This document shows, one piece after another, positions 12,306-55,754 of a stretch of DNA of 56,570 bases (within the stretch, counting starts at the first letter, position 1; every line of letters begins with the position of its first letter). Position numbers and translations under genes: made by a program. The stretch is from Nitrosovibrio sp. Nv4 (GTDB lineage Bacteria > Bdellovibrionota > UBA1018 > CAIMNF01). The stretch spans positions 1 to 56,570 of the forward strand of contig CALPVV020000003.1 in assembly GCA_943327105.2 (NCBI GenBank). The letters run 5' to 3'. The notes beneath the pieces were generated by a model. That model did no database searches. It was not told where the DNA came from and saw only the letters and a list, made by a program, of their open reading frames with translations.

Positions 12306-13469
12306 ATGAACAAAGTGATCCTGATTGGTTGCGGAATGCAGGCCTATGGCGCTGCTTATGATCTCATTAAATTCGGTAATCCGAAGGAGTTGATCCTGGC
12401 CGATGCGTTTCCCGAATCGATCGCCAAGCTCAAAACCTTTTTAGAAAAACATGTGAATCCCCAAAAACTGACCTCTCTTACGCTCGATGCGGGCGACATC
12501 GATGCTACTGCCAAGGCGGCGATGGGTTGTGTTTTGATGTTGAATACGGCTCCATATAAATACGCACTTGATATCACCAAGGCTGCGATCAAGGCGAAAG
12601 TGCCGATGGTCGATCTCGGTGGCGATACTGATATGGTACTGGCTCAACTCAAACTTTCTGATGAAGCAAAAGCAGCCGGAATCACGATCATTCCTGATTG
12701 TGGAATGGGGCCCGGAATGACGAACATCACCGTCGGGCACGCGATGGAACTGCTCGACACTGCCGATGAAATCATCACCCGTGATGGCGGAATACCGACC
12801 AACGGCAAACCGCCGATGAATTATCACTTGGTGTTTTCGATCGAGACCCTGGTGAATGAGTACACTGGAATGACGACCCAGATGCGTGATGGTAAATTCA
12901 TCAACATCGCACCGATGGATGAAATCGAACAATGCGATTTGCCGGTAGTGGGGAAGGTTGAAGCAACGCACGGAATGGGAATGCTTTCGACGCTGCCTTG
13001 GACGTATCAGGGCCGTGTGAAGAATCTCGAGAACAAATTCGTACGCTACCCAGGCAATCTCACTCTTTGGAAATCGCTCAGGGACATGGGCTTTTTCTCG
13101 CGCGAAGAAATCAAAACTGAAAACGGTGTATTTCAGCCCCGTGCGATGACAAAAGCACTTTTGGGAAATTTCCTGATGCCGAAAGGCGGCGAAAAAGATC
13201 TTTCGTTCATTCAAACGATCAGCAAAGGTCACAAGGATGGAAAGCCCGTGACGATTGAACACTGGATTTGTGATTACTCAGACCCGGTCACTGGTCTGAC
13301 CTCGATGCAACGAACCACTGGGTTCACCGCATCGATGGTGGGGCAGATGATTGTAGCGGGTTCTATTCAAGAAAAAGGCGTACTTCCACCCGAGTTGGCA
13401 GTACCGAAAATGCCGTTTTTTGACATGATTCAAACGCGCGGCTTTGAGTTCAAGTTCACTCAGCGCTGA
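12306..13469 (+). CDS. Saccharopine dehydrogenase / lysine 6-dehydrogenase family
   Basis: GCGMQA Rossmann motif, VDLGG, DCGMGPG, GGIP, NEY, MQRTTG. Confidence 0.9.
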   Translation: MNKVILIGCGMQAYGAAYDLIKFGNPKELILADAFPESIAKLKTFLEKHVNPQKLTSLTLDAGDIDATAKAAMGCVLMLNTAPYKYALDITKAAIKAKVPMVDLGGDTDMVLAQLKLSDEAKAAGITIIPDCGMGPGMTNITVGHAMELLDTADEIITRDGGIPTNGKPPMNYHLVFSIETLVNEYTGMTTQMRDGKFINIAPMDEIEQCDLPVVGKVEATHGMGMLSTLPWTYQGRVKNLENKFVRYPGNLTLWKSLRDMGFFSREEIKTENGVFQPRAMTKALLGNFLMPKGGEKDLSFIQTISKGHKDGKPVTIEHWICDYSDPVTGLTSMQRTTGFTASMVGQMIVAGSIQEKGVLPPELAVPKMPFFDMIQTRGFEFKFTQR

Positions 13470-13748
13470 TTACTGATTATCAATACAGCCGGCCATGTGG
13501 CTGTCGCATGGGCCATTTCTGTGGACTGGTTTTTGGTAACGTTCGTGCGCCTTACTTATGTCTTTTACTGGCTTTCCGCTGACCTTGGCTGCACCTGCTG
13601 ATTTTATCGGAGGGCAGGATTCCGGGTGGAGCCTGCAATCCCGTTGACTGTTTATTCTAAACGCATTGCTTTCCCTGGAAAACGCCTGATTACTCCCACT
13701 AACCCCCATCAGTGCCACAACAATGAATACATGAATGAATTTGAACAT
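13470..13748 (-). CDS. Small secreted Cys-containing protein
   Basis: Signal peptide, 4 Cys, GGGGG RBS-like sequence and TATAAT upstream. Confidence 0.65.
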   Translation of the reverse strand: MFKFIHVFIVVALMGVSGSNQAFSRESNAFRINSQRDCRLHPESCPPIKSAGAAKVSGKPVKDISKAHERYQKPVHRNGPCDSHMAGCIDNQ

Positions 13749-41150: not shown

Positions 41151-41219
41151 TGGCGGATTTCGTCAAAATAAAATTTTCAAGAAAAGTTTTTGACAGTGCG
41201 ACAATTTCTGCCTTACCCT
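41151..41219 (+). promoter_or_regulatory. Sigma70 promoter with two ftr-like palindromes
   Basis: TTGACA(41190)-18-TACCCT(41214); TGGCGGATTTCGTCA (41151-65) and CGACAATTTCTGCCT (41199-213). Confidence 0.6.
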
Positions 41220-41308: not shown

Positions 41309-42274
41309 ATGTTAGAGACGACAAACCCTATTCAGACCGCTTTCTCCGCAGGAATGACCGCGGAAGACACCAACTTGATTGAAAAAGCCGCTACTACAGA
41401 ACAAGGCGTTCTGATCACTGGCGAAATGGGCACAGGTAAAGAAATCGTTGCCCGTATCATTCATAACCGTTCTTCTCGCGCAGCTAAAAATTTTGCAGTA
41501 ATCAATTGTGCGTTGAGTGGCGAGGTTCTTGAAACTGAGTTTGTTTCTAAGATTGAAAACTCTGCTGGCGGAACAATTTACTTTGAAGAGATCAATGAAC
41601 TTCCACTTCACCTTCAAGCAAAACTGGTTCAAAACAACTATCCAGTACGCATCATCGCTTCTTCAAGCATTTCTCTTCAATCGTTGGTAACTGAGAAGCT
41701 TTTCCGTTCTGACCTTTTCGCTAAAGTTAACTTTGTGGCTTTGAATGTGCCTTCACTTCGTGATCGCGTATCTCAAATTCCAGTTCTCGTTCGCACTTAC
41801 ATCGAGAAATACAACAAATTGACCGGTTCAAATGTTGCTACTACTCCAGCACCTGAAGCGCTTGATGCATTCACTAGCTACACTTGGCCAGGAAATGCTC
41901 GCGAGCTTGAGCATGTGATCGAGCGTATCGTGATCATGAAAGGTCAAGGCATCATCGATGCTAACGATATCCCTGCTAAAATCTATCAATCTACCCAATC
42001 TGCTCAATCAGGTTTCGGCGCGATTGCTGATCTTGATTTCCCTCGCATGTTCTTGCCAGAAAAAGGTCTTGATCTGAAAGCAGTTGTGGCTGCATTCGAA
42101 AATCACCTTGTTGACCAAGCGTTGACTCGCACTAACGGCAACAAAAACCGCGCTTCAATGCTTCTTGGCTTGAACCGTACCACTCTTGTTGAAAAACTCC
42201 GTAAGCGTGGAATGATCACTCCGTTGAAATCTTCAATGGACATGAGAAATTCTGGAAACGGTAGCCAAGAGTAA
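41309..42274 (+). CDS. NtrC-family AAA+/Fis-HTH regulator, FleQ/FlrA-like HTH, lacking GAFTGA and receiver domain
   Basis: GEMGTGKE, WPGNARELE, HTH LNRTTLVEKL; LETEF-VSKIE junction where GAFTGA normally sits; Walker B YFEE. Confidence 0.88.
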   Translation: MLETTNPIQTAFSAGMTAEDTNLIEKAATTEQGVLITGEMGTGKEIVARIIHNRSSRAAKNFAVINCALSGEVLETEFVSKIENSAGGTIYFEEINELPLHLQAKLVQNNYPVRIIASSSISLQSLVTEKLFRSDLFAKVNFVALNVPSLRDRVSQIPVLVRTYIEKYNKLTGSNVATTPAPEALDAFTSYTWPGNARELEHVIERIVIMKGQGIIDANDIPAKIYQSTQSAQSGFGAIADLDFPRMFLPEKGLDLKAVVAAFENHLVDQALTRTNGNKNRASMLLGLNRTTLVEKLRKRGMITPLKSSMDMRNSGNGSQE

Positions 42275-42311
42275 TTCTTGGTAGTCTGATTTGATTTAAA
42301 GCGTGTTTGTC

Positions 42312-42348
42312 AGAAAGCCCCATTGTTATACAATGGGGCTTTTCTTTT
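42312..42348. terminator. Bidirectional Rho-independent terminator
   Basis: AAAGCCCCATTGT-TAT-ACAATGGGGCTTT between convergent genes. Confidence 0.9.
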
Positions 42349-42388
42349 GGGAGAGAGCCGGGGATTGGCTCAATTAAATTTTAAAAAA

Positions 42389-42823
42389 TTAGAAAGATAG
42401 TTCTGTTTCTTCAATAGGGCTGCCGACAAATACCGAATAGCCATTGCGGTCTTGAATGCGAACCAGAGTTGAATTGTTTGCGGTTTGATCGATGGTGACC
42501 ACGGTCTTGGTGGGGTTCAAAGTATTCTCATTTTGAATGGGAAGAATGCCTTCTGCCACGATTTGGGAGCCCATCTTTTTAAGTGTCAGTGTGTATTGTC
42601 TCAGCATTTCGGTGCAAGGAAAGGCGATGCTGCAGTCCGAATTCAAAGTGATTTTCAAGGTGCGTGTTGATGAGTTGATGAGGATTTTATTTTGAATCAT
42701 GGCCTGAAGAACTTGATGTTCTTGGCGGAGGTTTGCCGCTTGGTTTACTCGTACCATGTATTGTTTCGCTTCAGCGAATGTGGTTTGAAACAAAACAGCA
42801 GCAATGATTAAAATCGTTTTCAT
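42389..42823 (-). CDS. Secreted hypothetical protein
   Basis: Signal peptide ending AEA; CSIAFPC. Confidence 0.75.
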   Translation of the reverse strand: MKTILIIAAVLFQTTFAEAKQYMVRVNQAANLRQEHQVLQAMIQNKILINSSTRTLKITLNSDCSIAFPCTEMLRQYTLTLKKMGSQIVAEGILPIQNENTLNPTKTVVTIDQTANNSTLVRIQDRNGYSVFVGSPIEETELSF

Positions 42824-42945
42824 GCCGCTCTTTTAATCACATGAGGCAGGAGAAGGATAAATTATTCATTTTTAAGATCACCAATCAGTTAAACTGAAAT
42901 GGTTGAGTTTGTCTGTAAGTGCTTAAAACTAAAGGCCTTATTCTT

Positions 42946-43749
42946 TTACTCTTTGGCTTCTTTATTGTCTTTGATGGTTTGGCGAATCAGGTTTCTCATG
43001 ATTCGATTACGGTTTGCTTGGCCGACGAGTGCTTTGGCGTCGTCATATAGCGCGGGGTCGTTGATGAATGCACCCAGGGTGCCTTGCCCGTGATCTACTT
43101 TTTCTAAAATGGCGTCAAGGTGGTTAACCGCGCTCTTGAGTTTCATTTGGCTCAATTCCTGGTTCAGTTTCGAGCTGATCTCACTCATGTTTTTCGAAGT
43201 GGTCGAGAGCCCTTTGAAAAACTCCTCTGCACGATTACCTTTATTGAAAGAGGTGAGAATGCGTTCGAAGCTTTCTGCCGTTGCGGTCACTTTTTCCATC
43301 AGTCGTTCACTTGAGGTCATCAACATGGAAAAGTCTTTGCTGCTTCCTTGAGGAATTTCAGCGTTGTTCTCGATTTCAGGCTGATTCGGATCTCCGGCAA
43401 CCATTGAAAGGTATTTGTCTCCAAGCACACCTTGGGTGACGAGCTCAACACTTGATTCTTTACGAATCCACTGCGCATATTCACGTTCAATCGTATAGGT
43501 GACCTTGATGTCGCGGGTTAGCGGATCAAGCTCAACCGAAGATACGGTTCCGATCTTGAAACCACCCAGAGTGATTTTTGCGCCACTCACGAGTCCGTCG
43601 ACCTTGCTGAAGTGGGTGTGGTAATGGTTTACCTTTGTGAAAAAGCTCTGTTTTCCGCCTAAAACGAGTAGTGCAGTGAGTGCGAGAAAAAGCCCTCCGA
43701 GCACGAAGACCCCGACTTTCTTTTCGATTTTTTTCTCATCAGCTTTCAT
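42946..43749 (-). CDS. mlaD: MCE/MlaD family protein
   Basis: N-terminal TM, GLVSGAKITLGGFKIG, TQGVLGDKY, GQGTLGAFINDPALY. Confidence 0.9.
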   Translation of the reverse strand: MKADEKKIEKKVGVFVLGGLFLALTALLVLGGKQSFFTKVNHYHTHFSKVDGLVSGAKITLGGFKIGTVSSVELDPLTRDIKVTYTIEREYAQWIRKESSVELVTQGVLGDKYLSMVAGDPNQPEIENNAEIPQGSSKDFSMLMTSSERLMEKVTATAESFERILTSFNKGNRAEEFFKGLSTTSKNMSEISSKLNQELSQMKLKSAVNHLDAILEKVDHGQGTLGAFINDPALYDDAKALVGQANRNRIMRNLIRQTIKDNKEAKE

Positions 43750-44507
43750 CGGATATGGGCTCCTGTGGTGAATGATCTCACGAGTGGATTTTCAGAGTTT
43801 TTCATCTCTTCCGGGGTGAGAATCAAGTTGATCTTGCCTTCATGAAGAATCGCGATGCGGTCGCAGATCTTGAAGGCTGCTGGAATGTCATGGGTGACGA
43901 AAATGCCCGTCATGCCCCTGCGTTTGAATGAAAGGATGTTGTTCAAAAGGCGTTCGGTATTGACCGGATCAAGGCCTGCAGTAGGTTCGTCGAACAAGAC
44001 GATTTTCGGTTCTAGAATGATTGCGCGTGCAAGTCCGGCACGCTTTTGCATTCCGCCTGAAAGTTCGTTTGGTAGTAGTTTGTTTGAGCCTTTCATGTCG
44101 ATCAGTTCGAGCATGTGATTCACTTTTTCGCTGATTTCGACCTTGGTCAGGTGGGCATGGGCCTTTAAAGGGTAAGCAAGATTTTCTTCAACGGTAAGAG
44201 AATCGAATAAGGCGCCATTTTGGAATACGTAGCTGATTTTGGTGCGTACCTCGAAGAGTTCTTTTTCAGTAAGCTCGGCAAGGTTCATGTTATCGAAAAT
44301 GATTTCGCCTTCATCGGGTGATTCAAGGCCGATAATTGAACGAAGAACCACGCTCTTACCTGTTCCAGAGCCGCCAAATAATCCGAGAATTTCGCCTTGT
44401 TTTAAATCAAAGCTGACGCCTCTATGCACGTGTTTGTTGCCGAAGCTTTTATGGAGGTTGTGAATCCGCAGTGCCGGCTCCTGAGGAGCGGTTTTGGTAT
44501 CGAGCAT
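43746..44507 (-). CDS. mlaF: MlaF-type ABC ATPase
   Basis: GGSGTGKS, FQNGALFDSL, LSGGMQKRAGLARA, DEPTAGLDP. Confidence 0.93.
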   Translation of the reverse strand: MLDTKTAPQEPALRIHNLHKSFGNKHVHRGVSFDLKQGEILGLFGGSGTGKSVVLRSIIGLESPDEGEIIFDNMNLAELTEKELFEVRTKISYVFQNGALFDSLTVEENLAYPLKAHAHLTKVEISEKVNHMLELIDMKGSNKLLPNELSGGMQKRAGLARAIILEPKIVLFDEPTAGLDPVNTERLLNNILSFKRRGMTGIFVTHDIPAAFKICDRIAILHEGKINLILTPEEMKNSENPLVRSFTTGAHIR

Positions 44508-44509
44508 AT

Positions 44510-45313
44510 TCAGTATTTGGGATACACCGTCAGGAAGAAAAGTTTGGTCAAGAAGAAGTCAGCAATCATGATGAAGATCGAACTAGTGACCACGACCCAA
44601 GTGGTGGTGCGACCGACCCCTTCGGTTCCGCCCTCGGTGTTCAGACCTTTCCAGCAAGATGCGATTGCGATAAAAAACGCAAATACGGCGGTTTTTGCTA
44701 GTCCTGTGACCAGATCGGTGAGGGTTAATGTTTCAAATGTTTTAGTCACGAAAAACTCAATATCGATATTGAGTTCGAATTTTGCGATCAACATTGCGCC
44801 GATGAGTCCGACGTAATCGCCCATCAGAGTGAGTAAGGGAAGTGCGATCAGGCATGCAATCAGGCGTGGAATCACGATTTTTTGAATGGGTGAGGTACCG
44901 AGTGCTCGGATTGCATCGATTTGTTGGGTGACTTTCATGGAGGCGATTTCAGAAGCCATGCCCGACCCGATTCGGCCTGCAACCAAAAGACTGACAAAAA
45001 CTGGGCCCATTTCACGTAAAATGGCAAGGGAAGTGAGTTTGGGGACGTATAAGGTGCCGCCGAAGCGGGCCAAACCCTGACCGAATTGAAGTGCCATGAC
45101 AGAGCCGGTGGCAAGGCCGGTGATGAGCACCAGCACAAAAGATTGAACACCAATCGAGTAAAGTTGCTCGAAAACTAGTCTGGTTGGAAAGGGGAGTGTG
45201 AAAAGTTCTTCTATCGATTTCCAGGTCAGGCGGGTAAAGCCGCCGGCAAAATGAATGGCTCGACCAAGTGTTTCTTCTATTCCTAAATCGTGTGAGATTT
45301 TTTGCAGGTTCAC
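44510..45313 (-). CDS. mlaE: MlaE permease
   Basis: REMGPV, AGRIGS, MKVTQQIDA, GGTEGVG. Confidence 0.93.
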   Translation of the reverse strand: MNLQKISHDLGIEETLGRAIHFAGGFTRLTWKSIEELFTLPFPTRLVFEQLYSIGVQSFVLVLITGLATGSVMALQFGQGLARFGGTLYVPKLTSLAILREMGPVFVSLLVAGRIGSGMASEIASMKVTQQIDAIRALGTSPIQKIVIPRLIACLIALPLLTLMGDYVGLIGAMLIAKFELNIDIEFFVTKTFETLTLTDLVTGLAKTAVFAFFIAIASCWKGLNTEGGTEGVGRTTTWVVVTSSIFIMIADFFLTKLFFLTVYPKY

Positions 45314-45852
45314 TTGATGTTCAGTTTATCACGGAAACTCTTAAATACTGCAAGATCTTGCAAAAAGGTTTTGGTGGGGCTGAGAAAGATCAGGTCATAA
45401 ACGCAAGTCGGTGTTTTGACGACAACGGTCTGAAATTTGCGTTTTCGATTGAAATAGAAACCTTCAGCGGTGGTTTCGAGAGCCTTGAGGCCTGAAATGG
45501 TGATTTCTTTCTGGGTTATGTTTTCAAGATCCCGCCATTGAGTCAAAAGGTCATTTGAAATATCGCTCAATTCACGTTCGGTAGCGCCATTGCATGCAGA
45601 ATTCAAGGATATAACCGATGCGGTTTTGACGGACTGCCAGGCACGATCGGGAGCGTCGTTTTGAGGGACGCCCGCGACCAGGTCGACCCTTCGCCAAGCG
45701 GGGTCAAGAGTTTCAAGTGCAACTGCTTGGATGTTTTGTGATTTTTGGTCAACGGGATCAACCGTACCGACAAGAAGATGGCTCAGGCTGCAGCCAGTTG
45801 GTAAAGAAAGAGTCAAAAATACAACAATTGATGTGTAAAAATGTGATTTCAT
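45310..45852 (-). CDS. Lipoprotein, possibly PsbP/DcrB-like
   Basis: Lipobox LPTGC; SLNSAC...CVYDL; GTGA overlap with mlaE. Confidence 0.7.
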   Translation of the reverse strand: MKSHFYTSIVVFLTLSLPTGCSLSHLLVGTVDPVDQKSQNIQAVALETLDPAWRRVDLVAGVPQNDAPDRAWQSVKTASVISLNSACNGATERELSDISNDLLTQWRDLENITQKEITISGLKALETTAEGFYFNRKRKFQTVVVKTPTCVYDLIFLSPTKTFLQDLAVFKSFRDKLNIK

Positions 45853-45913
45853 CTACTTATTCAAAATTTAGCAGAATTAAATCGGAAATGCGAAATCTTT
45901 CATTGATCGTACA

Positions 45914-45928
45914 CGGCAGATTCTGCCA
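45914..45928. promoter_or_regulatory. ftr-like palindrome upstream of the flagellar operon
   Basis: CGGCAGATTCTGCCA, perfect GGCAGA-T-TCTGCC dyad. Confidence 0.65.
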
Positions 45929-45983
45929 CAATAGGAAATAGGTACCGGGTATAAGATGCCTAACAACACTGCTATGGAAGGGA

Positions 45984-48740
45984 GTGAGTACCTTGAAGAT
46001 CATCGGATTGATCGCCGCAAGTTGCGGTTCATTCATTGGAAATGCTGCATTTGCGACTTCGGTCGACAAATACAGTTCATTGGACATTCAACATCACTCT
46101 TCTTTCTCAAGACTCAATATCGCTTTGGACGAGTCGTTCAAGCCAATCATTCGTAATCATTCGAAAGGTTTTGAAGTCAGAATTCCTTCAGCAAATTTAC
46201 TAGATCTTGGAATTCCGATGGGCGGAGAAAAAGAGTTCAATCAGCAAATGAAGGACTTACGCGATTCCCGTCTTGCTGAGTTGACTGTATCGGAGAAAGA
46301 TTCTGAGCTCGTCATTCGCGGTAAATATGCGTTCCCATCAGGTAAGGAAGCATTTGCAAAACCGGAAATGGAATTATTCGATTTTTACCGGAAAGAAGAT
46401 GGAAAATTCGTAATCGATTTTTGGTATAAAAAAGGCCTGACTGCAATTGAGGCTTTAAAGCAAAAAAGAAAGTTCGATCTTAAAAAGATTGAAGACAAGA
46501 AAAGCGAAATCTTGAAAAAAGAAGATGAGCGTAAAGCCCAAAAAGAAAAGAGAGTTGAAGAAAGCAAGACTGCGCTTCGATTCTGCGAAACCCCACTCAG
46601 TAGGGATAATAGTCTCTGGGTCAGGTACCGCGCTGAACACCCTGTTTTGAATTTCAATTCTTATTTTCCTGAATTCATCCCTGATCATGGATTTAAATAC
46701 AAGGAACCGGCCGGCAAAAGTGAAGAAGACCAGATGGTCAGATTGGCGGTCAAACTTTCGCGTGAAAACAAGCATGCTCTTGTGGTGAAGACGGTCGAGT
46801 TTTTGAAAAAGGGATATCCGACATCAGCTTTCATGCGCGAGATGGAATTTCTTAAAGCAAGTTCATACTACCGGCTTGAAATGCATGAGCAGGGTAAAAT
46901 CCTGATTCAGGAACTTGCGAAAATTGAGAATAAAAGTGATGTAGGTGTCCAAGCCAATGCGTTTCTTGCAGCACAGTCTTTCCGAAACCAGGAGTGGCTT
47001 GCTGCTAACGATATATTCTTGAAGATTCGAAAAAATCATCCGGATCATCCACTGACCTGGTTGTTCAGATACGGAATCGCCGAGAGTCTTTATCAAATCA
47101 GACAATATGATCAGGCAAGACCTGAATTCGAATGGCTTGCCAAGAATGCACCAAACTTGAAAATCAAGAATGAAGCAGGTTACAAGTTTGGCGATTTGTA
47201 CTTCAATCGTAATCAGTTTGCTCAAGCGATCAATGCGTATGAGTCAGTTCTTCAAAGAGGACAGGATGGTTTGGCAGGGTATCCGCACGTTTACATGAAT
47301 CTTGGTGAATCATATTTTCAGCTCGAAGAATTCGTAAAAGCCGAAGGTAGTTTCAAAAAGTACCTTGAAATTGCAAGAGCTCAACCTACCGCATGGAAGG
47401 CAAGTCTTCGCGTTGCCGAGATTCGTTCGATGAAAAGCCCCAAAGAATCTGAAAAGAATTATACCGAAACGGTGAATCAATACCCGATGACTCCCGGTGC
47501 GGCGATTGCCCGATTGCGTATGCTTCCCTGTGGTAGTCATGGCGGATTTGATCTGTTAAGTGCGATCAGATATGTGAATTCGGATGAAGTGAAAAAAATC
47601 GAAGACCCTGCCGCTTTCTATTCCACAAGCTTATCGGAATTAGTCGGTCTTACCGAAGTCAGAACGCTTCTTTCCTTCAATGAAGATGAAAAAGCGATTG
47701 AGAAGGGATTGGCTCACTTGCGTGAGAATCCGTCAATGGAAGCTAGAAAACTGATTGAGCGAGGAATAGTCGGCGGAGTGAAGCGTCTGTTGGGCAAGAA
47801 GCTTGACGATCAGGACTATTATGGTGCGATCGCTTTTTACGAGAAGCATGGGGAGTATCTTCCTGCTCCGACATTTGATCCGAATTGTGATGAAATGAGA
47901 CTTAAAATTGCACGGTTTGCCGCAGATAAAAAACTGGCAACCCTTGCACTGAGAATCATCGAGCCATTTCGTTCAAGTGACGAGGTGGGATTGAAGATTG
48001 CAGCCAACGAAATTCAAAAAAACCTTCAACTTGAAAGCACCGATGAAATGGAAAGTCGTGCGATTGTTGAGGCAAAATCAATGTGGAATGGCGAAAAATT
48101 CAACGCCAAAGATGAGAAAGAGTCTGAAGAGTTTCTTTCCAAGCTTGACTCGATTCGTGATCAATCACGATTCGCACCGGAACGGGATTTGTTAAAATCA
48201 CTTTTTTATCGCCTGAAGGGCAATGATGATCGGGCGTTTTTGGTCGGCAGAAAACTGGCATCAGGAATGAATGGATTCAGCCAGTATACAAAGGCACAAA
48301 GCTGGTCTTATATTGCGGAATTGGGTGCAAAAGCCAAGGATCACGCCTTTTCAGCCAGTGCATTTCATCAGGCTCGTCTTTTGGTTGGAAAACTGACGGA
48401 GAAAGATCAGCCATCGTTTGAATACCGTCATTTTCCGAACGCGCCAACAAAGGCAAGACTCTATGCTTCCGAAGGTGAACAGCTTGAATACCAGGAAAAA
48501 TGGAAGGAAGCGGTTGCGCTTTACAATGAAGCGATAGAAAATAAATTAGGGGGAAATCACGTTCTTTATGCGCATGCACGTGCGATTTTGAAGGATGGTG
48601 GTCGCGACTCCAGGCTGATCGCAAGCCGGTCGCTAGAAAAAATTAAACAGAGTCAGGATGATGATGTTTGGAAAACACTGGCGCAGAAGGCGCTAGATTC
48701 GATTGCCAAGGAGGGCAAGAATGATGAAAAGCGAAAATAA
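45984..48740 (+). CDS. Large exported TPR protein heading the flagellar basal-body operon
   Basis: Signal peptide, multiple TPRs; overlaps the regulator start. Confidence 0.85.
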   Translation: MSTLKIIGLIAASCGSFIGNAAFATSVDKYSSLDIQHHSSFSRLNIALDESFKPIIRNHSKGFEVRIPSANLLDLGIPMGGEKEFNQQMKDLRDSRLAELTVSEKDSELVIRGKYAFPSGKEAFAKPEMELFDFYRKEDGKFVIDFWYKKGLTAIEALKQKRKFDLKKIEDKKSEILKKEDERKAQKEKRVEESKTALRFCETPLSRDNSLWVRYRAEHPVLNFNSYFPEFIPDHGFKYKEPAGKSEEDQMVRLAVKLSRENKHALVVKTVEFLKKGYPTSAFMREMEFLKASSYYRLEMHEQGKILIQELAKIENKSDVGVQANAFLAAQSFRNQEWLAANDIFLKIRKNHPDHPLTWLFRYGIAESLYQIRQYDQARPEFEWLAKNAPNLKIKNEAGYKFGDLYFNRNQFAQAINAYESVLQRGQDGLAGYPHVYMNLGESYFQLEEFVKAEGSFKKYLEIARAQPTAWKASLRVAEIRSMKSPKESEKNYTETVNQYPMTPGAAIARLRMLPCGSHGGFDLLSAIRYVNSDEVKKIEDPAAFYSTSLSELVGLTEVRTLLSFNEDEKAIEKGLAHLRENPSMEARKLIERGIVGGVKRLLGKKLDDQDYYGAIAFYEKHGEYLPAPTFDPNCDEMRLKIARFAADKKLATLALRIIEPFRSSDEVGLKIAANEIQKNLQLESTDEMESRAIVEAKSMWNGEKFNAKDEKESEEFLSKLDSIRDQSRFAPERDLLKSLFYRLKGNDDRAFLVGRKLASGMNGFSQYTKAQSWSYIAELGAKAKDHAFSASAFHQARLLVGKLTEKDQPSFEYRHFPNAPTKARLYASEGEQLEYQEKWKEAVALYNEAIENKLGGNHVLYAHARAILKDGGRDSRLIASRSLEKIKQSQDDDVWKTLAQKALDSIAKEGKNDEKRK

Positions 48741-49626
48741 GATTGAGACCAAGGAGTTGGGAACGGTTGATCACGAGTTCTCCGGGTTGCTCCAGTTGTC
48801 CAGATCGATCGCGAAAAGTCGCGCAACTGTTCTGATTCAAGGTGCGACCGGTACCGGCAAGAAAACAATTGCAAAGTACATTCATGAAAACAGTGTCCGT
48901 GCGGAAAAGAATTTTGAAGTTCTGAACGCGCGTGAAGTAAGCAATGATCAATGGGATCACGATTTCAAGAAGAAGCTCGAGCTCTCTTTGGGCGGAACTT
49001 TTCTCATCGTTGAAATCTCAAAACTGACATTGCAACAACAGCAAAAAGTTTATGAAGCGGTTCAATCGGGAACCGATATCCGTTGGATTGCAACCACCAG
49101 TGAAGATCTTGCCCGTTTATCGGCAGAAGGTAAGTTCCGTGAAGATCTTTATTACCGTTTCAATATCGTGAATTTGAAAGTTCCTGCGCTGGTTGCGCGA
49201 TTGAGCGATATCGAGCTTTTAGCGAATTCATTCGCTCGAAAATATTCAAAAATCCACGCACGCAAGACTCCGATTTTCAGTGAAGATGCGATCCAGTATC
49301 TGAAAGCTCAGAAATGGACCGGAAATTTGCGTGAGTTGGAAAGCTCTGTTGAACGCGCCGTTCTTCTTTCGCAAGATCTGGAGATTCGCCCTCGTGACAT
49401 TCAAGTAACCGTTGCTAAAGAACCGATCGCAGTTCTCAGTCTTGATGATAAAAATCTTGATTGGAAGCCGGGTAAGACCCTCGATGAAATCGAGCGTTCA
49501 GTGATTCTTGAGGCGCTGAAATACCACGAAGGCAATCGTACCCATACCGCGAAATCGTTGGGAATTTCAATTCGCACACTTCGTAACAAACTTGCCGAAT
49601 ACCGCGTATTGGGGATTCACGCATGA
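48721..49626 (+). CDS. NtrC-family AAA+/Fis-HTH regulator, FlbD/FlgR-like HTH, lacking GAFTGA and receiver domain
   Basis: AGGAGG RBS; GATGTGK, FREDLYYR, GNLRELE, HTH GNRTHTA..LGISIRTLRNKL; Walker B LIVE. Confidence 0.88.
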   Translation: MMKSENKIETKELGTVDHEFSGLLQLSRSIAKSRATVLIQGATGTGKKTIAKYIHENSVRAEKNFEVLNAREVSNDQWDHDFKKKLELSLGGTFLIVEISKLTLQQQQKVYEAVQSGTDIRWIATTSEDLARLSAEGKFREDLYYRFNIVNLKVPALVARLSDIELLANSFARKYSKIHARKTPIFSEDAIQYLKAQKWTGNLRELESSVERAVLLSQDLEIRPRDIQVTVAKEPIAVLSLDDKNLDWKPGKTLDEIERSVILEALKYHEGNRTHTAKSLGISIRTLRNKLAEYRVLGIHA

Positions 49627-50039
49627 TGAAGAATTTCTTTGATCCGACGATCCGCGCGTTGAATCAGAACTTGAATCTCCGTCAAGAGAATCAAAACATC
49701 ATTTCGGGCAATATTGCGAACGCGGATACCCCTGGCTACAAGGCGAAGACTTCTAATTTCGAACAAGCCATGCGTGATGCCCTAGATCTGAGTGAGAATG
49801 TGAAGCTTGAGACAGCTGACGCCGAGCACTTCGGCTCAAAAGGTCCCGAAGCCGTTCAAGCCGATGTCTATGATGATCCTAACGGAGTCGAATCTCTCGA
49901 TGGCAATACCGTCGATCGTTCCGCCGAGATGGCGAAAATGAAAGAGAACCAGATTCTATATAATGCGTCGATTGAAGCGTTAAGAAAAAAAATTGGAATG
50001 CTGGAATACGGTGTTTCTGAAGGCGGAGGTAATCGCTAA
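49623..50039 (+). CDS. flgB: Flagellar basal-body rod protein FlgB
   Basis: NIANADTPGYKA, DGNTVD. Confidence 0.96.
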   Translation: MMKNFFDPTIRALNQNLNLRQENQNIISGNIANADTPGYKAKTSNFEQAMRDALDLSENVKLETADAEHFGSKGPEAVQADVYDDPNGVESLDGNTVDRSAEMAKMKENQILYNASIEALRKKIGMLEYGVSEGGGNR

Positions 50040-50461
50040 TGGCTGATTTCTTTTCATCGATGAGAGTGAGCGCAACCGGGCTTGATGCCCAAATGAAGCG
50101 CATGAATACGATTTCTTCGAATATCGCGAATGCCGAATCGCAAGGGTATAAACGCAAGGACGTTGAACTTACTGCGACTGCTGATCGCGAGAGTTTTGGT
50201 GAAATTCTTCAGAATAAAGTGGATGAGTCGACCCAAGGAGTGCTGGTGACGGATGTTCGTGAAGACACAAAGCCTCAACGGTTGGTTTATAAACCGGATG
50301 ATCCGAATGCAAATGCTGAAGGTTACATCGAGATGCCAAATGTGAACCCGGTACAGGAAATGGCAAACATGATCAGTGCTCAGCGTTCGTATGAAGCGAA
50401 CGTGACCGCGATCGGTGCCGCAACCCAGATGGCCAATAAGGCCCTCGAGCTTGGACGATAA
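50039..50461 (+). CDS. flgC: Flagellar basal-body rod protein FlgC
   Basis: ISSNIANA, MPNVNPVQEMANMISAQRSYEAN. Confidence 0.96.
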   Translation: MADFFSSMRVSATGLDAQMKRMNTISSNIANAESQGYKRKDVELTATADRESFGEILQNKVDESTQGVLVTDVREDTKPQRLVYKPDDPNANAEGYIEMPNVNPVQEMANMISAQRSYEANVTAIGAATQMANKALELGR

Positions 50462-50474
50462 GGAGTAGGAAGAG

Positions 50475-50813
50475 ATGAATACAATCAATAATTCCTTCAG
50501 ACAAATCGACCCTGACTTGGGAATGATCCAGTCTACTGGAAGTAAAGAGATGACGGGTGCGCCCGCTGTTGGCGGCGCAAGCGAATCTAAGGGTGGTACG
50601 TTTTTCGATGCCCTTCAGAGCACGATGGAAGAAGTGAATAAGAACCAGTTGGAAGCGGATCAGTCGATCAAGGACCTCGTGGCAGGACGAACCAAAAACA
50701 TTCATGAGACCATGCTTCAGCTTCAAAAAGCCGACCTTTCTCTCAAGACAATGATGCAAGTGAGAAACAAGGTTCTTGAAGCGTATAAAGAAATCATGAA
50801 AATGCAGGTATAG
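50475..50813 (+). CDS. fliE: Flagellar hook-basal body protein FliE
   Basis: VRNKVLEAYKEIMKMQV. Confidence 0.96.
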   Translation: MNTINNSFRQIDPDLGMIQSTGSKEMTGAPAVGGASESKGGTFFDALQSTMEEVNKNQLEADQSIKDLVAGRTKNIHETMLQLQKADLSLKTMMQVRNKVLEAYKEIMKMQV

Positions 50814-50830
50814 GTGGAGGCGAATAATCG

Positions 50831-52546
50831 ATGAATTTTTTCACGAAAGTTTCAGGACAAATCAAGGACTTCCTTACTGGTCTCTCAGCAGGTAGGAAGA
50901 TGGCTCTTGCGGTTACCGCAGTTGCCATCCTGCTTTTCATTGTTGGGATGATTTTCTGGGCCAGCCAGCAAAATTATCAGCCGATTACCCATGGAAACAT
51001 GTCGGCCGAAGATTCCGCCAATGTCATGAGACTCTTGCGTGAGAAGAAAATCCCGTTCCAGGTTGATGTTACCGGTAAACAGGTGATGGTGCCTTCAGAA
51101 TATCTGAATGACCTTCGCCTTGAATTGGCGATGCAGGGAATGCCTCAGTCCAACGGTACGGGGTATGAATTATTCGACAAACAGTCTTTCGGAACCACCA
51201 GTTTTGTAAACAAGTTGAATCAGAAGCGCGCGATGGAAGGCGAGCTGATGAGATCAATCAATACGATCAAAGGAGTAAAGCGTTCCCGTGTTCACCTGGC
51301 GATGCCTGAGAAGAGTGCGTTTGTTCAAGATCAGAAAAAAGTAACCGCATCGGTGGTTCTTGATCTTGAATCGGGTGTTCAGCTGAATGAAAAACAGATT
51401 TTTGGTATCAGTCATCTGATTTCAAGTGCGGTTGAAGGGCTTGACTCCGCAAATGTTGCGATTCTTGATTCATTCGGAAAGGAACTTTCCAAAAATTCAC
51501 GCGATTCCCTGATTTCATTAACCAGCGAACAGAGCGAATACAAACGCAAGCTTGAAGAAGGTTATCAGCAGAAAATCGAAGATGTGCTCTCAAAAGTGGT
51601 CGGAGAAGGTCGAGTAAAGGCTTCAATCACTGCTGATCTGGACTTTTCGAATGTTCAGGAATCCCAGACCATCCTTGATCAGGATGGTGCAACCGTCCGA
51701 TCTTCCCAGAAGATTGCCGAGAACATGGAAGGTTCCAGACCGGTTGCTTCAGGTCCAGCTGGTGCGACTTCAAACACCCCGGGTGAACAGCCGGGTGTTG
51801 TGAATCCGAATGCGGTAAAAAACAATACCAACAAGAGCAACGAAATCGTTAACTACGATATTCCAAAAACGATTCGTACCACTTCACGTCCGGTGGGAAG
51901 TCTCAAGAAGCTTTCGGTCGCAGTGTTGATCGATGGAAAAACGGTTAAAACAACCGCCGCAGACGGAAAAGTCGAGTCGAAAAACGAGCAGTGGAGTGCT
52001 GAAAAAATCAAGGAATTTGAAGCCTTGGTTACGGGCTCACTGGCGATCGACAAAAAACGCGGTGATACGCTTGAAATCAAGAACATGGAGTTCGCTCGTG
52101 AAGACTTTATTGAAGCGGAAAAATTATTGGACGCTTCTGTCTTCAGGTCATACATCCAGCAAATTGTTCTGTATTCGGTGATTGCTTTGGTGATCGTATT
52201 GTTCTTCTTCTTCGTCGTTCGTCCATACATTCGATGGATTACCGAGAACACTACCGAGAGTGTCGATACTTTCCTGCCTCAGACCATCGAAGAGCTTGAA
52301 AAGATCCAGAAGAGCAGTGTTCTCTCCCAGTTGGATGATGTGATTCCGGATCTTCCGGATCGTCTTGATCCGGACAAGATCGAGGGAGAGATGATTCGTG
52401 AAAAAATTTCGACCCTGATTGATAATAATCCTCATAAGGCATCGTTGATCTTGAGGGATTGGCTCGCACAGGGAACTCCGAGTGAGATTAACAAGACTAC
52501 TGCTGCGCCAGCCGCAGACAAAGGCAAAGCAGCTAACCCTGCTTGA
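50831..52546 (+). CDS. fliF: Flagellar MS-ring protein FliF
   Basis: GYELFD, RAMEGEL, RVHLAMP, ASV, two TMs. Confidence 0.97.
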   Translation: MNFFTKVSGQIKDFLTGLSAGRKMALAVTAVAILLFIVGMIFWASQQNYQPITHGNMSAEDSANVMRLLREKKIPFQVDVTGKQVMVPSEYLNDLRLELAMQGMPQSNGTGYELFDKQSFGTTSFVNKLNQKRAMEGELMRSINTIKGVKRSRVHLAMPEKSAFVQDQKKVTASVVLDLESGVQLNEKQIFGISHLISSAVEGLDSANVAILDSFGKELSKNSRDSLISLTSEQSEYKRKLEEGYQQKIEDVLSKVVGEGRVKASITADLDFSNVQESQTILDQDGATVRSSQKIAENMEGSRPVASGPAGATSNTPGEQPGVVNPNAVKNNTNKSNEIVNYDIPKTIRTTSRPVGSLKKLSVAVLIDGKTVKTTAADGKVESKNEQWSAEKIKEFEALVTGSLAIDKKRGDTLEIKNMEFAREDFIEAEKLLDASVFRSYIQQIVLYSVIALVIVLFFFFVVRPYIRWITENTTESVDTFLPQTIEELEKIQKSSVLSQLDDVIPDLPDRLDPDKIEGEMIREKISTLIDNNPHKASLILRDWLAQGTPSEINKTTAAPAADKGKAANPA

Positions 52547-52571
52547 TAGGTAAAGATAAGGAGAACTAAAC

Positions 52572-53594
52572 ATGGGTGCATTGGTTGCGACAAGTTATGA
52601 AGATCTGACGGGTATTGAAAGATCCGCAATTCTCCTCAACGTACTTGGAAACCGGGTTACTGCCGAAATCTTCAAGCGATTGCGTGATAATGACGTGAAG
52701 CGCTTGGTTACGGTGATGGGCCAGGTAAACAAGGTGCCGATCCATGTGGTGAAGTTGGTTCTTGATGACTTTTATGCCGAGATTTCAGAAGAAGAGCAGC
52801 TGATCTTTGGCCATGCAACAGGTAAGGAATTCATTCTTGAAACTTTGGGTGAAGAACGCGCTAAAACGGTACTTGGTCAGTTGGCGGTGGTTGAAGGTGG
52901 TAGATCACTCGAGGCCCTTGAGCTTGTTGACCCTCGTACTCTTGCAAACTTCCTCGTGAATGAACATCCTCAAACAACCGCGGTTGTTCTTGCACATTTG
53001 ACCTCTGACAAAAAATGCGAAGTACTCAAAAAACTTCCAGAGCCGGTACAAACCGAAGTGGTTCTCAGAATTGCAAATCTCGATTTCATTTCTCCTTCAT
53101 TGCTTGCGCAGGTGGATGAAATTCTTAAACAGGAATTGGCAACACTGGGCTCGATCGATACCCAGCAGTTGGGTGGTGTTTCTCCGATCGCAGAAATGTT
53201 GAACGTGATGGACAAAAATACCGAACAAAGCATCATGGCTCGTGTCGAAGAACGCGATCCACAGTTGGCGGAAGAAATTCGTCGCTTGATGTTCGTATTC
53301 GAAGACATTGTCTTCATCGACGATCGCGGTATGCAAACACTTCTCAAGGAAGTTCCGAACGACAAACTCACGATTGCGCTCAAAACAGCGCCGGAAGACA
53401 TCAAGGCCAAGATCTTCAAGAATATATCGAAGCGTGCGGCCGATCTTCTTCGAGAAGACCTGGCGGCAATGCCTCCGGTCCGATTGTCGGATGTCGAAGT
53501 TGCTCAACAGGAAATCGTCAACGTTGCAAAACGACTCGAAGGCGAAGGAAAACTCATCATCAGTCGTGGTGGTGGAGATGATGCTCTCGTTTGA
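52572..53594 (+). CDS. fliG: Flagellar motor switch protein FliG
   Basis: EHPQ, GG, MFVFED, VEVAQQEI. Confidence 0.97.
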   Translation: MGALVATSYEDLTGIERSAILLNVLGNRVTAEIFKRLRDNDVKRLVTVMGQVNKVPIHVVKLVLDDFYAEISEEEQLIFGHATGKEFILETLGEERAKTVLGQLAVVEGGRSLEALELVDPRTLANFLVNEHPQTTAVVLAHLTSDKKCEVLKKLPEPVQTEVVLRIANLDFISPSLLAQVDEILKQELATLGSIDTQQLGGVSPIAEMLNVMDKNTEQSIMARVEERDPQLAEEIRRLMFVFEDIVFIDDRGMQTLLKEVPNDKLTIALKTAPEDIKAKIFKNISKRAADLLREDLAAMPPVRLSDVEVAQQEIVNVAKRLEGEGKLIISRGGGDDALV

Positions 53595-53607
53595 TAAAGG
53601 GGTCTGA

Positions 53608-54381
53608 ATGGAAAAATTCAAACAAGAGAAGAAGTTGCAGGTGAGTGAAGGGCCGATGGAAGTTCGGTCTTTCCAGCCACGCTCATTGACGGGCACCGTG
53701 GTCAATGATTACGAATCGACGAAATCGAAATTCGGAACGTTGGCTGCTACTGATTCTGAAGCGGATACGCGTTTCAATATGCATCCGGCATCAAGAAAGT
53801 ATCTTGGTATTGAAAATGAAGAGCATCGCCATCTTGAGGGACGCATCAATGAAGAGGTGGAAAAACGTCTTCAAGAATTGCGTGAACAGGCAAGGGTGGA
53901 AGGTTTTGCGAAAGGCCGAGAAGAGGGTATTGCAGCTGCAAAAGAAGAGTTTAGCCAGCAAAGTCAGCCAGTTTTTGACCATTTTCAAAAAGTATTGGTT
54001 GAATTCGAGGGCGCTAAAGATGAGATTTTCCATGCCAATGAAGAATTTCTGATTCAGCTAGTATTTCAAATCGCCCAGCAGGTGACATTGAAGGAGTTGA
54101 AGACTGATCGTGAATATGTGAAAAATCTTTGTTCTCAGCTGGTTGAGAAAATCGGAGCAAAAGATCACGTGAAGATCAAAATCGGTAAGGATGACTTCGA
54201 GCAGATCGATGCCATTCGCGAACATTTGAAACAGCAGTTTATTGATTTGAAAAACATACAGATTGATGTCTCGGAAGAATTCAACAGCGGTGGTTGCAAG
54301 GTTGAAACCGACCTTGCTCGTATCAATGCAAGTGTGGAAACCCAATTGCAATTGATCAGTCAGGCCTTGGGAGCACAATGA
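53608..54381 (+). CDS. fliH: Flagellar assembly protein FliH
   Basis: AxxxGxxxGxxxG repeat, GGCKVET. Confidence 0.92.
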   Translation: MEKFKQEKKLQVSEGPMEVRSFQPRSLTGTVVNDYESTKSKFGTLAATDSEADTRFNMHPASRKYLGIENEEHRHLEGRINEEVEKRLQELREQARVEGFAKGREEGIAAAKEEFSQQSQPVFDHFQKVLVEFEGAKDEIFHANEEFLIQLVFQIAQQVTLKELKTDREYVKNLCSQLVEKIGAKDHVKIKIGKDDFEQIDAIREHLKQQFIDLKNIQIDVSEEFNSGGCKVETDLARINASVETQLQLISQALGAQ

Positions 54382-55754
54382 CCTATCAGATTTCAAAGCA
54401 AAAATACGAAGAGCGTCTTGCGCAGAATATGCTTTATGATGAAGCGGGCAAGATTACGAAAACTCTTGGTTTGCTTTATGAAGCCTATCTTCCAGGTGGA
54501 AGTGTCGGCAGTATCTGTGAAATCGTTCTGAATGAACATGACCCCTTTGCTCAGCCGGTAGAGGCTGAGGTGGTGGGATTCAAGGACAAACGAGTCTATC
54601 TCATGCCATATGATGAGGTTACCGGCATCAATCACAATAGCGTGGTTAAACTGAAATCACGCGCTTCAAATTTTCTTGTTTCTGAGAGCCTTCTCGGTCG
54701 CGTGATCGATGGGCGAGGGCATCCGATCGATGGAAAAGGTCCTCTCTATAACAATGAATTTGAAACACAATATCGTTCACTTTACAGCAAACCAACCGCT
54801 CCTTTGGGGCGTGCGATGATCGAATCCCCCCTTGATCTTGGTGTTCGCGCCATCAATGGGTTGCTCACTTGCGGTAAGGGTCAGCGAATGGGAATCATGG
54901 CCGGATCAGGCGTGGGAAAATCAGTTCTACTCGGTATGATGGCAAGAAATACCGAAGCGGACATCAACGTCATTGCATTAATTGGTGAGCGTGGTCGGGA
55001 AGTGCGTGAGTTCATCGAGCGGGATCTTGGTGAAGAGGGTTTGAAGCGTTCAGTGGTCATTGTGGCAACTTCCGATAGTTCAGCATTGTTGAGAACTCGG
55101 GCCTCTTTCTTGGCTGCCACGATTGCCGAATTTTTCCGTGATCAGAATAAAGATGTCTTATTGATGATGGATTCGGTTACTCGTTTTTGCATGGCTCAAC
55201 GTGAAATCGGACTTTCATTGGGCGAGCCTCCTGCTTCAAAGGGTTATACACCGAGTGTTTTTGCCGCATTACCTCGTTTACTTGAGCGGGCGGGAATGGG
55301 TGAGAATGGCAAGAGTATTACCGGGTTGTATACGGTTTTGGTCGACGGAGATGACATGGATGAACCGATTGCCGATGCGGCAAGATCGATTCTCGATGGT
55401 CACATCGTTCTTTCCAGAAAACTTGCACAACAGAATCATTTTCCGGCAATCGATATCCTGTCGAGTGCTTCACGTGTGATGAACGCAGTGACCTCGAAAA
55501 ATCACCAACAATGGGCAGGGCAGGTCAAAGAATGGCTTGCTGTTTATAAACAAGCCGAAGATTTGATCAATATCGGAGCATACGTCAAAGGTTCAAACCC
55601 ACGCATTGACCAGTCGATCGGGGTTTATGACCGGATCATTTCTTATTTGCGTCAAAAAACAGACGAATCTTCGAATTATTCAGAGTGTGAAGGGTTACTT
55701 CACGGTATCGTGCGTTCCGGTGAAGCCCTTGCACAGGCGAATGCACGCAAGTAG
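54378..55754 (+). CDS. fliI: Flagellar export ATPase FliI
   Basis: GSGVGKS, IGERGRE, MDSVTRF, DGHIVLSR. Confidence 0.97.
   Translation: MTYQISKQKYEERLAQNMLYDEAGKITKTLGLLYEAYLPGGSVGSICEIVLNEHDPFAQPVEAEVVGFKDKRVYLMPYDEVTGINHNSVVKLKSRASNFLVSESLLGRVIDGRGHPIDGKGPLYNNEFETQYRSLYSKPTAPLGRAMIESPLDLGVRAINGLLTCGKGQRMGIMAGSGVGKSVLLGMMARNTEADINVIALIGERGREVREFIERDLGEEGLKRSVVIVATSDSSALLRTRASFLAATIAEFFRDQNKDVLLMMDSVTRFCMAQREIGLSLGEPPASKGYTPSVFAALPRLLERAGMGENGKSITGLYTVLVDGDDMDEPIADAARSILDGHIVLSRKLAQQNHFPAIDILSSASRVMNAVTSKNHQQWAGQVKEWLAVYKQAEDLINIGAYVKGSNPRIDQSIGVYDRIISYLRQKTDESSNYSECEGLLHGIVRSGEALAQANARK

Follow-up and report, generated by a model that had tools for sequence, protein, structure and literature searches.

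Bacterial enhancer-binding proteins (bEBPs) without the GAFTGA motif form an established small class, to which TyrR, PhhR, HupR, HsfA, NtrX, VpsR and the NtrC proteins of R. capsulatus and Caulobacter belong, and these atypical EBPs either work with sigma70-RNA polymerase or act as repressors, some of them with an altered Walker B motif (PMC6158489, PMC10274813). For R. capsulatus NtrC, the binding of ATP is enough and its hydrolysis is not needed (PMC10274813, PMC6158489), and it has been suggested that GAFTGA-less EBPs form a bridge between activation through sigma54 and activation through sigma70 (PMC6158489). The present analysis concerns two receiver-less bEBP homologues, EBP1 and EBP2, encoded in a window of 56,570 nt (contig C3 of assembly GCA_943327105.2, a genome of 2.3 Mb in 137 contigs, 92% complete, placed in the Bdellovibrionota and labelled G000 here; its family-level clade is called f1 and its genus g1). 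Both combine bEBP homology with the absence of GAFTGA and a non-consensus Walker B motif, the features by which atypical EBPs are defined (PMC6158489). Among the hallmarks of sigma54-dependent bEBPs they retain a PF00158-type AAA+ domain and lack the GAFTGA loop (L1), the pre-sensor-I insertion (L2), the Walker B Asp and sensor I Asn and, as judged from sequence at two operons, -24/-12 promoters. The observation itself is confirmed and its interpretation is supported by comparative evidence: we consider it probable that EBP1 and EBP2 are functional derivatives of the atypical type, which neither contact nor remodel sigma54 and serve as DNA-binding factors at sigma70-type flagellar promoters.

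The original prediction, made from the letters of the window, held that both proteins had lost the GAFTGA loop and loop 2 and carried an altered Walker B motif, that Walker A, sensor II and the helix-turn-helix (HTH) were kept, and that neither had a receiver (REC) domain; phmmer and paralogue alignments and Pfam bear this out, and all of the quoted peptide strings (4/4) are present in the two translations. The naming of L1 and L2 and the roles of the Walker B Asp/Glu, sensor I and the Arg finger follow general AAA+ usage. Pfam splits PF00158 into two stretches in each protein (E 3e-24 and 2e-21), also matches AAA_lid_14 and HTH_8 in both and matches a receiver domain in neither, and EBP1 begins about 20 residues ahead of the AAA+ core, without an N-terminal FleQ/REC-like domain. 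When the proteins are aligned by phmmer with the solved structures of FleQ, FlrA, NtrC1 and ZraR, gaps fall precisely over L1 (about 15 aa) in both, and L2 is likewise gapped, in frame, by 12-15 aa; identical gaps are obtained with the 13 other paralogues of G000. Eleven of the 15 EBP paralogues of this genome keep G[AS]F[TS]GA, and EBP1 and EBP2 are without both loops. Two further paralogues also depart from the canonical form: a receiver-less protein of 278 aa (C69:3498-4334, minus strand) has no L1 and a mostly present L2, and a protein of 393 aa (C22:18858-20039, minus strand) has a degenerate L1 (GAMPMS). The best solved relatives of EBP1 are FleQ (E 8e-39) and FlrA (E 5e-35), and the best NCBIfam model for EBP2 is that of Caulobacter FlbD (NF050807), whose cut-off of 750 lies far above the 215 bits scored; 'FleQ-like' and 'FlbD-like' are therefore fair as statements of likeness and not of membership.

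The loop losses are accompanied by a consistent pattern at the catalytic residues. The Walker B motif reads YFEEI in EBP1 (D to E) and LIVEI in EBP2 (D to V), against FLDEI in the intact paralogues; sensor I is changed from N to S in both, and the Arg finger is replaced by K in EBP1 and kept in EBP2, while both proteins retain the Walker A Lys, the sensor II Arg and the HTH. The GAFTGA columns are wholly missing in 74 of the best 120 database relatives of EBP1 (45 have them, 1 in part) and in 94 of the best 120 relatives of EBP2 (26 have them). Among the 74 loop-less EBP1 relatives, the Walker A Lys and the sensor II Arg are each present in 72, the Walker B Asp is replaced by E in 63, the Arg finger is K in 72, and the sensor I Asn is kept in none (S in 60). 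The 94 loop-less EBP2 relatives all have the Walker A Lys, with sensor II Arg in 91 and an Arg finger R in 88; the Walker B Asp is found in none (A, V or T instead) and sensor I is S in 86. The L1-bearing relatives (45 for EBP1, 26 for EBP2) are canonical at these residues, the one exception being His at sensor I in two EBP1 relatives. By general knowledge of AAA+ proteins, this pattern fits nucleotide binding with presumably little or no hydrolysis. AlphaFold models show a compact AAA+ core with lid and HTH (pLDDT 73.3 for EBP1 and 84.8 for EBP2), in which helix 3 is unbroken at the usual site of the L1 insertion and, in both proteins, strand 4 follows helix 4 without interruption, and the top Foldseek match for both is NtrX of Brucella, followed by ZraR, FlrC, NtrC1, FleQ and VpsR.

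Orthologues place the loop-less forms as derived. The order EBP2-flgB-flgC is found in 30/30 loci of the phylum, with a tetratricopeptide repeat (TPR) gene ahead of EBP2 in 29 of the 30. EBP2 is loop-less, with in-frame deletions, in 8/8 g1 loci, canonical in 19/20 loci of the other families of the order and intact in the single locus from another class; EBP1 is loop-less, again in frame, in 16/16 g1 loci and intact in 12/13 loci from the other families of the order. Because the deletions recur in frame across these g1 loci and in 74 (EBP1) and 94 (EBP2) database clusters, they are not an assembly artefact. A quick maximum-likelihood tree requires the loops to have been lost on three occasions (EBP1 in f1, EBP2 in f1, and EBP2 in f18, a second lineage belonging to another class and represented by single-contig genomes of 3.0-4.0 Mb), and each loop-less clade is nested among intact forms (SH-aLRT 99, 100 and 99). 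Within f1, EBP1 of G033 (genus g2) has partial deletions and represents an intermediate form, and L1 was probably lost first in EBP2, since four of the 94 L1-less relatives still carry L2 (P0168, P0175, P0207, P0211). Two further independent departures are seen elsewhere: EBP1 of G202 (L074, f30) has its own 8-aa deletion in L1 with L2 intact, and EBP2 of G094 (L051, f6) reads GAFAGT, with LDN at Walker B. The closest EBP1-type proteins in other classes carry REC and GAFTGA, and the receiver domain of EBP1 had already been lost in the order containing G000. All named records with a loop-less EBP1 at 68% identity or more (14/14) are uncultured metagenome-assembled genomes, and the loop-less forms make up one family-level clade (f1) of uncultured, predatory-type bacteria.

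The loss of catalytic residues and the long stem branches of the loop-less clades (0.5-1.1 substitutions per site) might be taken as signs of decaying genes, or of assembly artefacts, without function. This explanation is already contradicted and is scarcely credible: reading frames are open at all loci examined, the HTH is invariant, at least 100 positions are invariant or nearly so, the structural models are confident, and the ratio of nonsynonymous to synonymous substitution rates (dN/dS) is low, at 0.013-0.064 in the six EBP1 pairs whose dS is below 0.7 and at 0.032 in the sole EBP2 pair of that kind (the remaining listed pairs, at 0.20 or less, are near saturation). Relaxed selection, which the original prediction had named as an outcome that would speak against it, was not found; dN/dS indicates strong purifying selection, and by these measures EBP1 and EBP2 are functional as well as derived. 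In addition, a metatranscriptome run containing 1/10 of the sampled words yielded seven short contigs matching the locus, of which three match the window without a difference (two within EBP2 and one in the lipoprotein gene that lies ahead of the TPR gene) and a fourth, with 5 differences, spans the EBP2-flgB junction. These contigs are a weak hint of expression, as they cannot reveal start sites and DNA carry-over is possible, and the parts that they leave uncovered carry no meaning.

The derived state of the proteins is matched at the promoter of the operon in which EBP2 lies. Orthologous intergenic regions were compared: across 47 loci (895,742 nt over both strands), the sigma54-type pattern TGGCAY-N6-TGCW occurs 38 times, and 36 of these occurrences represent one and the same site, located where the lipoprotein gene and the TPR gene diverge. 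This site is present upstream of TPR in 20/22 loci of the sister families of the order, in 8/8 of other classes (f22, f24, f27) and in 8/8 of f18, giving 36/38 non-f1 loci as opposed to 0/9 in f1, where the two leftover matches lie inside the TPR coding sequence of two loci. Upstream elements of the GTCA/TGAC type are common at this promoter in the sister families, and none was seen in the f1 TPR upstream regions inspected. The place where relatives carry TGGCAY-N6-TGCW is occupied in G000 by a predicted sigma70-type core promoter (Table 1): TTGCnn-N18-CACAAT is found in 5/9 f1 loci and 0/19 others, with near variants in three further f1 loci, including G000 (-35 TTGATC). The spacer between the predicted -35 and -10 elements of the f1 promoter contains a GGCA-N5-TGCC palindrome, which reads GGCAGATTCTGCC in G000 (45915-45927).

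A comparable turnover is seen at flgF. Directly upstream of this gene, a sigma54-type site is present in 10/10 loci of other classes and 9/13 sister-family genomes (19/23 outside f1) and in 0/18 f1 loci. A sigma70-like pattern, TTGCnn-N16-18-YAnAAT, chosen after viewing the f1 sequences, is found in this region in 16/16 g1 loci (15/18 f1 loci in a narrower window) and in 0/11 sister loci, with a rate of 0.006 per region in shuffled sequence. In G000, the predicted flgF -35 element (TTTGCAACC) matches the -12 region of the sigma54 site of G057 (ATTGCAACC), with the -24 GG displaced, which suggests reuse of the old -12 element as a -35 element; TTGCAACC is common to the G057 sigma54 -12 element and the G000 -35 element. 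Upstream of the predicted flgF promoter lie a GGCA-N5-TGCC palindrome (7/18 f1 loci by the strict pattern) and, in g1, a TTGAC element, and downstream of it, in g1, is a leader hairpin with a CAGGAUG-type loop. The sigma70-like patterns at both operons were selected with the sequences in view, so they are hypotheses backed by positional conservation and are not tests.

Rewiring away from sigma54, as the original prediction proposed, is supported by these comparisons, in which the loops are absent rather than diverged and no sigma54-type sites were found at the two operon starts examined in f1. Sigma54 itself is retained by the genome: the recommended check for rpoN and for intact EBPs found rpoN, as well as fliA, and the 11 intact EBPs. 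The strict pattern TGGCAY-N6-TGCW gives 39 sites in G000 compared with 14 in a reversed-sequence control; 21 of the 39 are intergenic, mostly 11-120 nt ahead of a gene. The 16 genes scanned downstream of such sites include those for LpxC, BON, CBS, PRTase and DUF proteins and no recognisably flagellar gene. G000 therefore appears still to use sigma54, but not at the flagellar operons examined. A looser genome-wide sigma54 pattern (77 matches against 42 in the control, mostly within open reading frames) was dropped as noise, and a position weight matrix built from the 36 sites was not used, being circular.

The presence of rpoN and 11 intact EBPs also leaves room for indirect service to sigma54, in which EBP1 and EBP2 would form mixed oligomers with an intact EBP or recruit it to DNA, themselves contributing the DNA binding and the partner providing loops and ATPase activity. 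Such an arrangement is plausible for f18, whose flgB-abutting EBP (L083-L085, L124-L128; 274-280 aa) is without L1 and L2 and reads IED at Walker B, with deletion boundaries that differ from those in f1, and stands beside an EBP1-type protein that is a full REC-AAA+-HTH regulator with GAFTGA. The sigma54 promoters are kept at both operons in this lineage (TPR 8/8, flgF 5/5); the expectation that f18 would lack the flgF site was wrong. In f1, neither operon start has a sigma54-type site (0/9 and 0/18) although the same pattern finds 21 intergenic sites elsewhere in G000, and the Arg finger of EBP1, which acts between subunits, is replaced in 72/74 relatives, so that indirect service is quite improbable for EBP1 and EBP2. 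Both predicted sigma54 promoters are missing only where the EBP1-type activator too is loop-less.

Taken together, the comparison of loci shows that the ancestral circuit of the phylum combined an EBP1-type activator with a flgB-linked EBP2, both of them intact, and had predicted sigma54 promoters ahead of the TPR-EBP2-flgBC-fliE... operon and ahead of flgF, and that on the f1 branch both proteins lost L1 and L2 and changed their catalytic residues. Neither promoter is found in f1, nor are the GTCA/TGAC-type elements upstream of them. In g1, new sigma70-type promoters of the form TTGCnn-N16-18-YAnAAT would then have arisen at the places of the old sigma54 promoters, the flgF -35 element probably deriving from the old -12 TTGCA element. 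With the P-loop Lys and sensor II Arg kept, EBP1 and EBP2 would still bind nucleotide and hydrolyse it poorly or not at all, and they would bind retained sites, namely the GGCA-N5-TGCC palindrome and TTTTGAC half-sites. The candidate sites at flgF precede the -35 element by about 20-45 nt, as would suit an activator, whereas the location of the palindrome within the spacer of the TPR-EBP2 promoter would be repressor-like and would suggest negative autoregulation.

This last arrangement is also what would be expected if both proteins were pure repressors or anti-activators, having kept an ancestral negative function (promoter occlusion, early-operon feedback) and activating nothing, with sigma70-type promoters that are constitutive or otherwise driven; the GGCA-N5-TGCC palindrome inside the predicted TPR-EBP2 -35/-10 spacer favours that view, and a Caulobacter paper listed among the references of PMC12754779 speaks in its title of a sigma54 activator as a pole-specific repressor. 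At flgF, however, the palindrome and TTTTGAC lie upstream of the -35 element and not over the core, which by a common rule of thumb is more typical of activation, and the strictly conserved P-loop and sensor II suggest nucleotide-dependent control beyond plain occlusion. Although the best fold match, NtrX, is described as a repressor (PMC6158489) and bEBPs that repress overlapping sigma70-type promoters have been described (PMC12754779), we regard a purely repressive role as unlikely.

Several points weigh against the preferred reading of EBP1 and EBP2 as atypical factors at sigma70-type flagellar promoters. Loss of the loops in EBP2 alone does not imply independence from sigma54, because f18 appears to keep both sigma54 promoters, and 4/13 sister-family genomes with intact EBPs likewise gave no sigma54 site at flgF. 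The pattern TTGCnn-N16-18-YAnAAT is found at flgF in 0/2 of the other f1 genera (G033 and G222), which are also without sigma54 sites; its f1 count is partly circular, owing to the way it was chosen, and the shuffle leaves this bias in place. Loop loss and promoter loss are tied together by a single f1 event, seen at two operons, and the related genomes are not independent of one another. The comparison covers two flagellar operon starts, and 8/16 of the genes downstream of sigma54-type sites in G000 have no Pfam family and may hide flagellar genes. Finally, all promoters and binding sites described here are predicted from sequence, and we infer the reality of the sigma70-type promoters, the pairing of sites with proteins and the activating or repressing sign of their action. 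A wider proposal, that the whole tiered flagellar circuit moved from sigma54 to sigma70 in place and with the same factors, by matching excisions of L1 and L2, changes at the catalytic sites that would have turned both activators into sigma70 factors able to bind nucleotide but not to remodel, and simultaneous reuse of the -12 TTGCA as a -35 element, is tentative, and we hold it to be possible rather than probable. If true, the surviving relatives, whether intact, intermediate like G033 or converted, would join with the independent, half-converted f18 in a natural series on the loss of enhancer-dependent transcription.

The features of the locus are collected in Table 1.

Table 1. Coordinates of the EBP1 and EBP2 genes, their neighbours and associated predicted elements in the window.
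Feature	Position	Strand	Remarks
EBP1, receiver-less FleQ/FlrA-like bEBP homologue, 321 aa	41309..42274	+	HTH ...LNRTTLVEKLRKRGM
EBP2, receiver-less FlbD/FlrC-like bEBP homologue, 301 aa	48721..49626	+	HTH ...LGISIRTLRNKLAEYR
TPR protein of 918 aa, encoded first in the operon	45984..48740	+	3' end overlaps EBP2 start
flgB and flgC	49623..50461 (flgB 49623-50039, flgC 50039-50461)	+	flgC is a PF06429 match
fliE, fliF, fliG, fliH, fliI	50475..55754	+	fliG, fliH and fliI by Pfam
Inverted repeat GTCAAAA-N19-TTTTGAC, 5' of EBP1	41162..41194	+	Hand-counted; candidate EBP1-type site
Predicted sigma70-type core promoter of the TPR-EBP2-flg operon, TTGATC-N18-CACAAT	45903..45932	+	Sequence prediction

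The genes are arranged in the order Tad-type ATPase and secretin, metK, a small open reading frame, EBP1, a hypothetical gene, an mlaDFE-like operon and a lipoprotein gene on the opposite strand, followed by the TPR gene, EBP2, flgB, flgC, fliE, fliF, fliG, fliH and fliI. The names of flgB, fliE and fliF are assigned from gene order; orthologues of the latter two are kept across all 47 compared loci. The start of flgB overlaps the stop codon of EBP2, for which an alternative TTG start at 48703 would give 307 aa. The complete metK-EBP1-mla-TPR-EBP2-flg order is found in two other genomes, and in many genomes of the order a distance of 7-10 kb separates the EBP1 and EBP2 orthologues on the same contig. 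The flagellar connection of EBP1, for which the original prediction could point to its HTH and to proximity, is strengthened by this shared gene order and spacing and by FleQ and FlrA being its best solved relatives. The inverted repeat upstream of EBP1 is possibly a FleQ-box-like site (in the usual sense of that term) and a candidate for autoregulation; half-sites of the same GTCAAAA/TTTTGAC type also occur in upstream activating sequence elements of the sister-family sigma54 promoters.

Several observations concern the neighbouring gaps and leaders. A first scan of the EBP2-flgB gaps, requiring GC at -12, was empty, and reading of the gaps gave CGGCAYG-N4-CTTGAA in seven sister loci (L031, L034, L035, L037, L042, L043, L050), a putative element with sigma54 spacing and TTGA instead of TTGC at -12. 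It sits in an EBP2-flgB gap of 70-340 nt, with GGCA..TGCC repeats upstream; f1, f18 and f22 have no such gap (-4 to 12 nt in most loci). Hairpins with CAGGAUG/CAGGAAG loops are present in the 5' leaders of flgF in f1/g1 (G000 C23:25802-25816) and also in the TPR-EBP2 leaders of the sister families and f18 (L086-L128). We take these loops to be similar to CsrA sites, and csrA- and fliW-like genes, presumably correctly named, adjoin flgK-flgL on contig C27. Upstream of flgE, a conserved leader, GGCTGGACCC..GGGAAGCC..GATTGAC, was found in 5/5 genomes compared (G000 C48, about 13463-13690; L188-L191) and has no Rfam match; no Rfam family was matched anywhere in the window either, nor at the leader loci of flgE and flgF. 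A variant sigma54 site upstream of flgE in G033 overlaps the ribosome-binding site, has no counterpart elsewhere and was taken as chance.

The main value of the locus is the preservation of an intact, intermediate and converted series with matching promoter turnover. The transition can be traced in one orthologous circuit, from intact proteins with sigma54 promoters through partial deletions to loop-less proteins with sigma70-like promoters, and it makes testable the questions of whether activator or promoter changes first, whether a -12 element can seed a -35 element, and of what use a hydrolysis-dead AAA+ protein may be. It also carries a warning for annotation, as public sources give EBP1 and EBP2 names such as 'sigma-54-dependent regulator' or 'FlrC'. 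A 2025 survey of sigma54 regulons retains GAFTGA-bearing EBPs only and, in the part of its text available, does not mention Bdellovibrio (PMC12316311); surveys that define EBPs by GAFTGA in this way will miss loop-less proteins.

No description of loop-less flagellar EBPs, or of Bdellovibrionota EBPs like these, was found in the literature covered, which excludes subscription journals. Among flagellar regulators, FleQ and FlrA resemble EBP1 in the HTH region, which aligns (RRTTLVEKMRKYGM and NRTTLVEKLRKRGM), and FleQ acts at sigma70 promoters too, as repressor and activator (PMC3424551); unlike EBP1, FleQ is a driver of sigma54 flagellar promoters, with an N-terminal FleQ domain and with GAFTGA and ATPase intact. 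FlrC ranks high among the fold matches of EBP2 (TM 0.82 on the AAA+ domain), which is itself encoded in an early flagellar operon, whereas FlbD keeps GAFTGA (PMC10274813) and EBP2 is without receiver, L1, L2 and Walker B Asp. The top Foldseek match of both proteins, NtrX of Brucella abortus (E 4e-21 and 9e-18), is an atypical EBP to which a repressor role is ascribed (PMC6158489) and differs from them in its receiver domain and its place in an NtrY/X system, with 25-28% identity and modest full-length TM-scores (0.54-0.70). The sigma70-acting atypical EBPs share with EBP1 and EBP2 an AAA+ domain with a Fis-type HTH, a deleted or altered L1 and, often, a non-consensus Walker B motif; their action with sigma70 is known, and here it is predicted. 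The atypical EBPs treated in PMC10274813 and PMC6158489 have nitrogen, aromatic amino-acid, hydrogenase, heat-shock or biofilm targets, and those described carry N-terminal sensory or receiver domains. EBP1 and EBP2, in contrast, are two receiver-less paralogues of the flagellar hierarchy within one circuit, L2 is lost in addition to L1, and their relatives still display positional orthologues that are intact, an intermediate form and the sigma54 promoters that have gone.

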